Positions 7,073-47,437 of a stretch of DNA of 64,000 nucleotides are shown piece after piece. Both the position numbers and the translations under genes were made by a program. This DNA is from Escherichia coli (GTDB taxonomy: Bacteria; Pseudomonadota; Gammaproteobacteria; Enterobacterales; Enterobacteriaceae), in assembly GCF_003018255.1 (NCBI RefSeq), contig NZ_CP027440.1, one strand, 5' to 3'. The notes beneath the pieces were generated by a model. That model had not been told where the DNA came from, ran no database searches, and worked only from the letters and a program-made list of their open reading frames with translations. Each line of letters starts with the position of its first letter. Position 1 is the first letter of the stretch.

Positions 7073-7345
7073 TTATTTGATATAAGAATCCAGCACCTTC
7101 AGAACGACATCCAGATCTTCTTCACGTTTTAGCTCATCCCCCTGGTGAACGATGTGTTCCGTCAGATGGCCTTTAATCACTTCCCGCATCAGACCGTTTA
7201 CCGCGCCACGGATAGCAGCAATCTGTTGTAAAACTGCAGCGCATTCATGCGGTTCGTCGAGCATTTTCTTGAGCGCCACGACCTGGCCCTGAATCTTACT
7301 GGCACGCGCTTTCAGTTTCTGTTTATCACGGATTGTATGAGACAT
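7073..7345 (-). CDS. rcnR: Ni/Co-responsive transcriptional repressor (CsoR/RcnR family)
   Basis: 90-aa ORF divergent from rcnA; the intergenic region carries RcnR operator motifs. Confidence 0.85.
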
Positions 7346-7393
7346 GGCAACACCTGGTTAACAAGAATATGAAAAATCATAGCACTATTAATC

Positions 7394-7428
7394 TACTGGG
7401 GGGTAGTATAAGGTACTGGGGGGGAGTA
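7394..7428. promoter_or_regulatory. Two RcnR operator sites (TACT-G6-N-AGTA)
   Basis: tactggggggtagta and tactgggggggagta are read directly in the rcnR-rcnA intergenic region. Confidence 0.8.
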
Positions 7429-7465
7429 GAATCAGATTGCCGAATTAATACTAAGAATTATTATC

Positions 7466-8290
7466 ATGACCGAATTTACAACACTTCTTCAGCAAGGAAA
7501 CGCCTGGTTCTTCATCCCCAGCGCCATCTTACTTGGTGCGCTTCATGGCCTGGAACCGGGGCACTCAAAAACGATGATGGCGGCGTTTATCATCGCCATC
7601 AAAGGCACCATTAAACAGGCGGTGATGCTCGGACTGGCAGCAACTATTTCGCATACCGCAGTGGTCTGGTTAATTGCCTTTGGCGGGATGGTGATCAGCA
7701 AACGCTTTACTGCTCAATCAGCAGAACCGTGGCTCCAGTTGATTTCCGCAGTGATCATTATTAGCACCGCGTTCTGGATGTTCTGGCGTACCTGGCGCGG
7801 CGAACGCAACTGGCTGGAGAATATGCACGAGCATGATCATGAGCATCATCACCACGATCACGAAGATCACCACGACCATGGACATCATCACCATCACGAA
7901 CATGGCGAGTATCAGGATGCCCATGCACGAGCCCATGCCAATGACATTAAACGACGCTTTGATGGTAGAGAGGTCACCAACTGGCAAATTTTGCTATTTG
8001 GCTTAACCGGTGGCCTTATCCCCTGCCCGGCAGCAATTACCGTGCTGTTGATTTGCATTCAGTTGAAAGCCCTGACACTGGGCGCAACACTGGTCGTCAG
8101 TTTCAGCCTCGGCCTGGCGTTAACGCTTGTCACCGTAGGCGTTGGCGCAGCAATCAGCGTTCAGCAGGTCGCAAAACGCTGGAGCGGATTTAACACTCTC
8201 GCTAAACGCGCTCCCTATTTTTCCAGTCTGTTGATTGGCTTAGTTGGTGTGTATATGGGCGTACATGGCTTCATGGGCATAATGCGATAA
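7466..8290 (+). CDS. rcnA: Nickel/cobalt efflux permease
   Basis: 274-aa membrane protein with a His/Asp/Glu-rich loop (HEHDHEHHHHDHEDHHDHGHHHHHEHGE). Confidence 0.9.
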   Translation: MTEFTTLLQQGNAWFFIPSAILLGALHGLEPGHSKTMMAAFIIAIKGTIKQAVMLGLAATISHTAVVWLIAFGGMVISKRFTAQSAEPWLQLISAVIIISTAFWMFWRTWRGERNWLENMHEHDHEHHHHDHEDHHDHGHHHHHEHGEYQDAHARAHANDIKRRFDGREVTNWQILLFGLTGGLIPCPAAITVLLICIQLKALTLGATLVVSFSLGLALTLVTVGVGAAISVQQVAKRWSGFNTLAKRAPYFSSLLIGLVGVYMGVHGFMGIMR

Positions 8291-8508: not shown

Positions 8509-8847
8509 ATGACCATTAAAAATAAGATGTTGCTGGGTGCGCTTTTGCTGGTTACCAGTGCCGCCTGGGCCGCACCAGCCACCGCGGGTTCGACCAATAC
8601 CTCGGGAATTTCTAAGTATGAGTTAAGCAGTTTCATTGCTGACTTTAAGCATTTCAAACCAGGTGACACCGTCCCAGAGATGTACCGCACCGATGAGTAC
8701 AACATTAAGCAGTGGCAGTTACGTAACCTGCCCGCGCCTGATGCCGGGACGCACTGGACCTATATGGGTGGCGCGTACGTGTTGATCAGCGACACCGACG
8801 GTAAAATCATTAAAGCCTACGACGGTGAGATTTTTTATCATCGCTAA
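8509..8847 (+). CDS. rcnB: Periplasmic Ni/Co homeostasis protein
   Basis: Start set at the internal Met (MTIKNKMLLGALLLVTSAAWA signal peptide) within ORF 8329..8847, giving 112 aa; GGAGA-like RBS upstream. Confidence 0.75.
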   Translation: MTIKNKMLLGALLLVTSAAWAAPATAGSTNTSGISKYELSSFIADFKHFKPGDTVPEMYRTDEYNIKQWQLRNLPAPDAGTHWTYMGGAYVLISDTDGKIIKAYDGEIFYHR

Positions 8848-26217: not shown

Positions 26218-26300
26218 GTTGAGATGCCATGTTGCACTATCAGTAACTTAACATCAAAGTAGTAAATAAAAGAACCTGCCTCACCAGCAGGTTCTTTTAT
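26218..26300 (+). ncRNA. orzO: Divergent antitoxin sRNA (OrzO-like), about 80 nt
   Basis: Consensus-like promoter TTGCAA-17-TATAAT (26183..26211), then a transcript ending at hairpin gaacctgc-ctcaccagc-gcaggttc plus T-run; 5' end gttgagatgccatgttgcact is complementary to the toxin 5' UTR (26053..26073). Confidence 0.6.
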
Positions 26301-26825: not shown

Positions 26826-26908
26826 GTTGGTACGAAATGTTGCACAATCAGCAAGTTAGCGTCATTGTAGTAAATAAAAGAACCTGCCTCACCAGCAGGT
26901 TTTTTTAT
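26826..26908 (+). ncRNA. orzP: Divergent antitoxin sRNA, second copy (OrzP-like)
   Basis: Promoter TTGCAA-17-TATAAT (26791..26819); 5' segment gttggtacgaaatgttgcaca is complementary to the copy-2 toxin UTR (26661..26681); same terminator hairpin. Confidence 0.6.
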
Positions 26909-47264: not shown

Positions 47265-47437
47265 GATGAGCATTCAGATAGTGGTTCACGCGCACGGGTT
47301 GCGCACCGCCGGAGTAAGGATTTACTGAGGCTAGCGACGCCATCATAACGAGCAAAAAGTGCGATCGTCAAAGAAGAATCGTGAGGAAATGCTGCATTGC
47401 TGACATTTACGCCAGCAATGCAGCGCAAAAGAACTTT

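Follow-up and report, generated by a model that had tools for sequence, protein, structure and literature searches.

A tandem RcnR operator common to the divergent rcnR and rcnA promoters of Escherichia coli

The genes for the repressor RcnR and the nickel/cobalt efflux protein RcnA stand back to back in Escherichia coli, and the 120-bp gap between them (7346-7465) holds two G-rich repeats. The question raised by this locus is what these repeats are for. A sequence-only reading of the 64-kb stretch of E. coli DNA analysed here (the window) had proposed that they are paired G-tract sites for RcnR, situated 5 bp apart between the divergent genes. Direct reading of the sequence, a motif scan and the list of open reading frames confirmed the coordinates of both sites and their location inside the gap, and we are very confident that the segment 7394-7428 is the known tandem RcnR operator common to the back-to-back rcnR and rcnA promoters. 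The evidence that we contribute to this conclusion comprises the sequence of the sites, their identity to those of K-12, their position relative to published transcription start sites and their conservation. This metal-sensing switch is already known, having been footprinted in K-12 and used in cobalt-inducible expression systems and biosensors, and the present case illustrates that a real regulatory site is recognisable from sequence alone.

Each repeat is a 15-mer of the form TACT-G6-N-AGTA (Table 1), in which TACT and AGTA, the reverse complements of one another, flank one continuous tract of six or seven G residues, and the two repeats begin 20 bp apart. The shorthand TACT-G6/7-AGTA, by which the sites had originally been described, is accurate for site 2, but it misses the T that intervenes between the G-run and AGTA in site 1. 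Likewise, the two runs do differ by one G, as had been pointed out, but the contrast does not hold as a difference in length. The seventh position is the N of the motif, which is T in one site and G in the other, and the half-sites are therefore equally spaced, 7 bp apart, in both. The choice of T or G at this position may influence affinity. When both strands of the 64-kb window were scanned with TACTGGGGGGNAGTA, allowing up to two mismatches, sites 1 and 2 were the only matches and both were free of mismatches; the chance expectation for such matches is 0.17, and two or more were obtained in 0 of 100 shuffles. Two structural candidates in the same region were rejected. A G-quadruplex was dropped because the strand has only two G-runs, and an inverted repeat composed of 7382-7397 and 7425-7440 (75% complementary) was not retained as a separate element because it consists mostly of the TACT of site 1 pairing with the AGTA of site 2.

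Table 1. Features of the rcnR-rcnA region, with window coordinates and, where measured, column identity to the window over 58 distinct two-site intergenic regions.
Feature	Position	Strand	Sequence or description	Basis	Column identity
rcnR	7073-7345	-	90 aa; Ni(II)/Co(II)-responsive repressor, CsoR/RcnR family	open reading frame, NCBIfam	
rcnR transcription start	7368	-	from K-12	start-codon anchoring	
Putative rcnR extended -10 block	7376-7384	-	TGCTATGAT; 7 nt upstream of the start at 7368		76%
RcnR operator site 1, rcnR-proximal	7394-7408		TACTGGGGGGTAGTA = TACT-GGGGGG-T-AGTA, N=T	direct reading, motif scan	99.1%
-10-like hexamer	7404-7409	+	TAGTAT, formed by N=T and AGTA of site 1 and the flanking T7409; 8 nt upstream of 7418		
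Spacer	7409-7413		TAAGG, 5 bp; holds the only intergenic difference from K-12		48%
RcnR operator site 2, rcnA-proximal	7414-7428		TACTGGGGGGGAGTA = TACT-GGGGGGG-AGTA, N=G	direct reading, motif scan	99.8%
Minor rcnA transcription start	7418	+	from K-12	start-codon anchoring	
rcnA -10 hexamer	7427-7432	+	TAGAAT; 7 nt upstream of 7439; its first TA is the end of the AGTA of site 2		
Remainder of TAGAAT	7429-7432				93%
Main rcnA transcription start	7439	+	from K-12	start-codon anchoring	
Putative Fur-box-like palindrome	7452-7466	+	TAAGAATTATTATCA; over the rcnA ribosome-binding region	2 mismatches to consensus	
rcnA	7466-8290	+	274 aa; Ni/Co efflux protein	open reading frame; NCBIfam NF007454, 560 bits	
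rcnB	8509-8847	+	112 aa; periplasmic accessory protein	position matches K-12 b2107; RefSeq rcnB in 2014C-3338	
Other flanking stretches					35-49% (about 35-50%)

The identities of the flanking genes are well supported. The RcnR translation is identical to K-12 b2105 at 90 of 90 residues, scores 197 bits against the NCBIfam equivalog NF011613 (cut-off 138), and contains His3, Cys35, His60 and His64, which constitute the H-C-H-H metal-ligand fingerprint described for RcnR (PMC11672702). RcnA is identical to K-12 b2106 at 270 of 274 residues, and a search of the rcnB reading frame against NCBIfam gave no match. A 1.9-kb stretch around the sites is 100% identical to strain 2014C-3338, and the locus is found in 5369 of 5426 complete E. 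coli genomes, where the annotation is always rcnR / rcnA / rcnB. Some further features of these genes were noted in passing. Three of the four RcnA differences from K-12 fall in the histidine-rich loop (residues 121-135, window 7826-7870; HEHDHEHHHHDHEDHH vs HGHDYEHHHHDHEHHH), and strain N3 carries a 6-bp insertion that gives an rcnA of 831 bp instead of 825 bp. The minus-strand segment 6885-6981, which directly adjoins rcnR at its 3' end and precedes thiM, matches the TPP riboswitch family (Rfam RF00059, 71 bits).

Comparison with the K-12 operator, which had been suggested as a check on the initial proposal, bore it out: 150 of 151 bases between 7330 and 7480 are identical in MG1655, and both 15-mers are unchanged. 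The single change is at 7410, which is A here and C in K-12. To count these alleles we used a 55-mer query in which every 28-base seed must include base 7410, and found that, of 5426 complete E. coli genomes, 18 carry A and 5136 the C of K-12. This is the least conserved position of the region, with approximately 10% identity across species, and A is also present there in other genera. Judging from these distributions, A7410 is most likely neutral.

For binding, stoichiometry and release, we rely on the literature. Passages in three papers (PMC7055735, PMC3902906, PMC7105576) state that apo-RcnR binds TACT-G6-N-AGTA and that two copies of this sequence reside in the rcnR-rcnA intergenic region. 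The fit to the RcnR recognition pattern that had been proposed is thus exact, since both sites are the published sequence and the genes on either side are rcnR and rcnA. At type 1 sites of the CsoR/RcnR family, one tetramer binds per site and makes contacts at the TACT/AGTA arms, and the unbroken G-tract confers an A-form character that is read by shape (PMC3902906). RcnR footprints have been reported, and mutation of the AGTA dyad results in loss of binding (PMC3902906). Nickel or cobalt causes RcnR to dissociate from its operator (PMC7055735, PMC3902906, PMC7105576), and the operator designated rcnO places a foreign promoter under cobalt control (PMC7105576). A 2:1 tetramer:DNA model has been presented for Salmonella RcnR on the rcnA promoter (PMC5709419). 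In addition, two titles cited in PMC7055735 refer to wrapping of flanking DNA by RcnR (Iwig & Chivers 2009) and to a 'shared operator' (Blaha et al. 2011).

Transcription start sites in K-12 have been reported by Kim et al. 2012 (PMC3415461, supplementary file 2) for rcnR (2183841, minus strand, 23-nt 5'UTR) and for rcnA, which has a main start (2183912, plus strand, 27-nt leader, 25 reads) and a minor one (48-nt leader, 12 reads), all from one genome-wide data set with low counts (11-25 reads). We transferred these positions to the window by anchoring on the start codons, which places the rcnR and main rcnA starts 71 bp apart. With these starts at 7368 and 7439, site 2 therefore covers -25 to -11 and site 1 covers -45 to -31 of the main rcnA promoter (PrcnA), and site 1 also covers -26 to -40 of the rcnR promoter (PrcnR). 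Together, the two sites extend from -11 to -45 of PrcnA and from -26 to -60 of PrcnR and thereby overlap both promoters. The TGCTATGAT block is a putative promoter element of rcnR, and TAGTAT may provide a second rcnA promoter. A generic promoter scan also returned two candidates that disagree with the published start sites and were rejected. For one of these (TTGCCG-16-TATTAT; 7437-7464, plus strand), the start would follow the rcnA ATG, and the -35 element lies in the least conserved stretch; the other (TTAACC-18-TACAAT; 7361-7332, minus strand) is located partly within the rcnR coding sequence.

This arrangement is compatible with a simple mechanism. When nickel and cobalt are scarce, apo-RcnR tetramers would bind, one per TACT-G6-N-AGTA site, by reading the TACT/AGTA inverted repeat together with the unusual shape of the unbroken G-tract. 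Occupancy of site 2 would cover the spacer of PrcnA and the beginning of its -10 element, occupancy of site 1 would cover the -35 regions of both promoters, and the two bound tetramers would thus cover the core of both, in agreement with the title of Blaha et al. 2011, which speaks of a 'shared operator'. Since the sites lie over both promoters, bound RcnR would be predicted to keep RNA polymerase off rcnR and rcnA, such that the rcnAB efflux genes and rcnR itself would be repressed; promoter occlusion is the mode of repression that we infer. Binding of Ni(II) or Co(II) would then lower the affinity of RcnR for DNA, leading to its release and to transcription of both genes.

Comparative data were obtained from a scan for RcnR in one genome per species, which yielded 80 loci spanning Escherichia, Citrobacter, Salmonella, Klebsiella/Raoultella, Kosakonia, Rahnella, Hafnia, Erwinia, Edwardsiella, Morganella and one Vibrio. 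At every locus with enough sequence, rcnA is divergent from rcnR. Column identities over the two-site regions (Table 1) mark out the two sites and two -10 elements as a clean phylogenetic footprint. Within the spacer, positions 2-5 are free to vary between species, and 27 different spacer sequences are represented. The rcnR -10 block follows the pattern TGnTAnnnT, wherein TG, TA and the final T are conserved at about 90% or more among the 58 regions and the n positions are variable; a block of this pattern is present in 61 of 79 loci, and its commonest distance from the first site is 9 bp. On the other side, nearly all species have TAnnnT as the hexamer that follows site 2, and in 48 of 79 it is TAGAAT. 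Each of the six positions of TAGTAT reaches 90% conservation or more, and this holds also for T7409, which is not part of the RcnR motif. Some of the high conservation of the sites may be due to this overlap with promoter elements.

Although the published motif permits any base at N, this position is not free in nature: the rcnR-proximal site is exactly TACTGGGGGGTAGTA (N=T) in 59 of the 67 loci that have a second site, and the rcnA-proximal site is exactly TACTGGGGGGGAGTA (N=G) in 73 of 79. In 63 of the 67 two-site loci the sites begin 20 bp apart; this register, like the T/G asymmetry, is maintained across Enterobacterales and in one Vibrio. Possibly, the T of site 1 is kept because it helps to form the -10-like TAGTAT. 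The flanking base of site 2 that is equivalent to T7409 is G and is less conserved than T7409, suggesting that the latter may reflect promoter overlap rather than a symmetric contact with RcnR.

The number of sites also differs among species: most have two, Erwinia psidii, Edwardsiella anguillarum and one Enterobacter have a single site, and Kosakonia and Phytobacter have three. In Kosakonia/Phytobacter and relatives (9 loci), the third site is imperfect (AACTGGGGGGGAGTT) and is situated 21 bp from site 1 in the direction of rcnR, making three in a row. Eight loci, from Enterobacter sp. CC120223-11, Erwinia psidii, Edwardsiella anguillarum and Morganella, have only the G7 site, joined to the -10 hexamer. 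The intergenic region of the single-site species is 20 bp shorter, except that Morganella instead retains a degenerate remnant of site 1. Such sequences would fit with the acquisition or loss of an operator module of 20 bp. A different rearrangement is seen in Escherichia whittamii, which has lost 150 bp precisely between two imperfect 17-bp direct repeats (CATGGCAACACCTGGTT / CAAGGAAACGCCTGGTT; window 7343-7359 and 7493-7509). The deletion takes the whole operator-promoter region and the first rcnA codons, and joins the rcnR start codon to the interior of rcnA.

Differences in the length of the G-tract itself were also sought among the 5426 complete E. coli genomes, using short-run queries in which any seed must extend across the complete G-run. 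An allele of site 2 that is one G shorter (TACTGGGGGGAGTA, a 14-mer of the form TACT-G6-AGTA), and whose half-sites are consequently 6 bp apart instead of 7, was found in 133 genomes, and a G5 allele of site 1 in 37. Queries for longer runs (G8 in site 2, G7 in site 1) were uninformative because the low-complexity filter masks runs of seven or more; a wild-type C7 control, which is necessarily present, was likewise unmatched under the megablast low-complexity filter, and the negative results for G8 and G7 are therefore filter artefacts. As a coding control, the equivalent change in yehI (C7 to C6) was found in 3 genomes, and its haplotype occurs in only about 514-1114, giving 0.3-0.6% compared with 2.5% for the site 2 G6 allele, a contrast that is at most suggestive. 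Length variants occur in other species as well, including Citrobacter sp. R56 (site 2 G6), S. enterica arizonae (site 1 G5), and Enterobacter sp. R1 and one Morganella (both G8).

Five carriers of shortened runs that we examined have four different rcnR-rcnA haplotypes, and strain 675SK2 has both G-runs shortened; hence, some cases are probably assembly errors or recurrent slippage. Conversely, a sample of 60 carriers of the site 2 G6 allele includes the O111:H- reference 11128 and at least 12 independent O111:H8/NM genomes, and 11128, an O111:H8 field isolate, E2863 and RM9131 have the same RcnA and ThiM protein accessions. Because 11128 and many O111:H8 genomes carry the allele on one shared haplotype, it looks to be inherited in the O111 STEC lineage (O111:H8/H-), and its scattered occurrences outside this lineage may be assembly error. 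We tentatively raise the idea, which we regard as rather unlikely to prove correct in full, that the operator is a duplicated operator plus -10 module present in one, two or three copies, which would account for its site-specific N and 20-bp register, and that the shortened site 2 of O111 changes regulation. If this were true, the O111 allele could weaken RcnR binding or alter the spacer length of PrcnA, and thereby reset basal Ni/Co efflux.

Given that the sites and the promoters overlap, we considered whether the repeats might be kept mainly as core promoter elements, in the form of a duplicated -10 with an upstream module, and not for repressor binding. A -10-like hexamer overlaps or adjoins the end of each site (TAGTAT at 7404-7409 and TAGAAT at 7427-7432), the K-12 starts lie 8 and 7 nt downstream of these hexamers, respectively, and T7409 is conserved even though it is not part of the RcnR motif. 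However, the TACT arms and the full G-runs are equally invariant and yet match no sigma-70 element. Moreover, the reported RcnR footprints, the loss of binding upon mutation of the AGTA dyad (PMC3902906), and the cobalt control that rcnO gives to a foreign promoter (PMC7105576) all argue for a repressor site. We judge this explanation to be very improbable, and promoter overlap is best seen as a constraint added to that of RcnR binding rather than as an alternative to it.

Even less probable is the notion that the sites serve some other protein of the CsoR/RcnR family, such as the paralogue FrmR, rather than RcnR. Members of the family do recognise related G/C-tract sites (PMC3902906), and the RcnR protein of the window scores 76.5 bits on the FrmR model, but this value is far under the FrmR cut-off of 133 and the RcnR model is passed. 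Furthermore, the sites are located at the promoter of rcnR itself, and their exact sequence has been assigned to RcnR (PMC7055735, PMC3902906, PMC7105576). We give equally little credence to the proposal that the G-runs are prone to slippage and turn rcnA expression on and off within a population, as in phase variation. The short alleles of E. coli (site 2 G6, n=133; site 1 G5, n=37) and the similar variants in Citrobacter sp. R56, S. enterica arizonae, Enterobacter sp. R1 (G8) and one Morganella (G8) are what such a process might leave behind, but run lengths are constant in 73 of 79 species loci for site 2, in 59 of 67 for site 1 and in approximately 95% of E. coli genomes, which indicates stability. 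Runs of 6-7 are also short for contingency loci, and some of the variants are probably homopolymer assembly errors, an example being 675SK2 with both of its runs shortened.

Another block of the intergenic region, over the ribosome-binding region of rcnA, may be relevant to iron. The palindrome TAAGAATTATTATCA has two mismatches to the Fur 7-1-7 consensus TGATAATNATTATCA, and the window contains three such matches where 0.24 are expected. This block is 79% conserved across genera, versus 35% for its upstream neighbour, and its cross-species consensus is nAAGAATnATTCTCA. Previously, rcnA was listed among the members of the Fur-2 iModulon (PMC10164565), and the title of a 2007 paper ties RcnRA to iron homeostasis. 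We therefore describe 7452-7466 as a candidate element resembling a Fur box; a second Fur-like match lies within rcnA (7752-7766). Farther along the window, two copies of the OrzO-P antitoxin RNA (Rfam RF02083) are present about 600 bp apart on the plus strand (26225-26298, 90 bits; 26833-26906, 89 bits) and presumably mark tandem zor-orz type I toxin-antitoxin loci, and a Peptidase-S11 cis-regulatory RNA motif (Rfam RF03039, 73 bits) is matched on the minus strand at 47269-47349.

The comparative data assembled here, including the invariant positions and the single-site, three-site and shortened-tract variants, could guide the engineering of RcnR operators, and the same variants could guide the study of natural set-points for Ni/Co efflux. 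Among known systems, the closest is the rcnR-rcnA operator of K-12, with which the window shares the two 15-mers in the same order, orientation and 20-bp register, together with the promoter elements that flank them and RcnR itself, and from which it differs by one spacer base (7410, A here and C in K-12). All sequence-level features of this tandem operator, and of the type-1 CsoR/RcnR class, are present in the window. As in that class, each site has one unbroken G-tract with TACT/AGTA repeats 7 bp apart, and the sites are in tandem; no difference from the class was noted, the rcnR-rcnA locus being the example from which it was defined. Type-2 CsoR operators, such as that of Streptomyces lividans CsoR (PMC3902906), are likewise G-tract pseudopalindromes with a GTA dyad, and the repressors of both types are tetrameric four-helix bundles. 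In contrast, type-2 sites have two short G/C tracts that are 2-4 bases apart, with repeats about 11 bp apart and two tetramers bound per site (PMC3902906), whereas each site in the window has one continuous tract and, according to the stoichiometry given in PMC3902906, would be bound by one tetramer.
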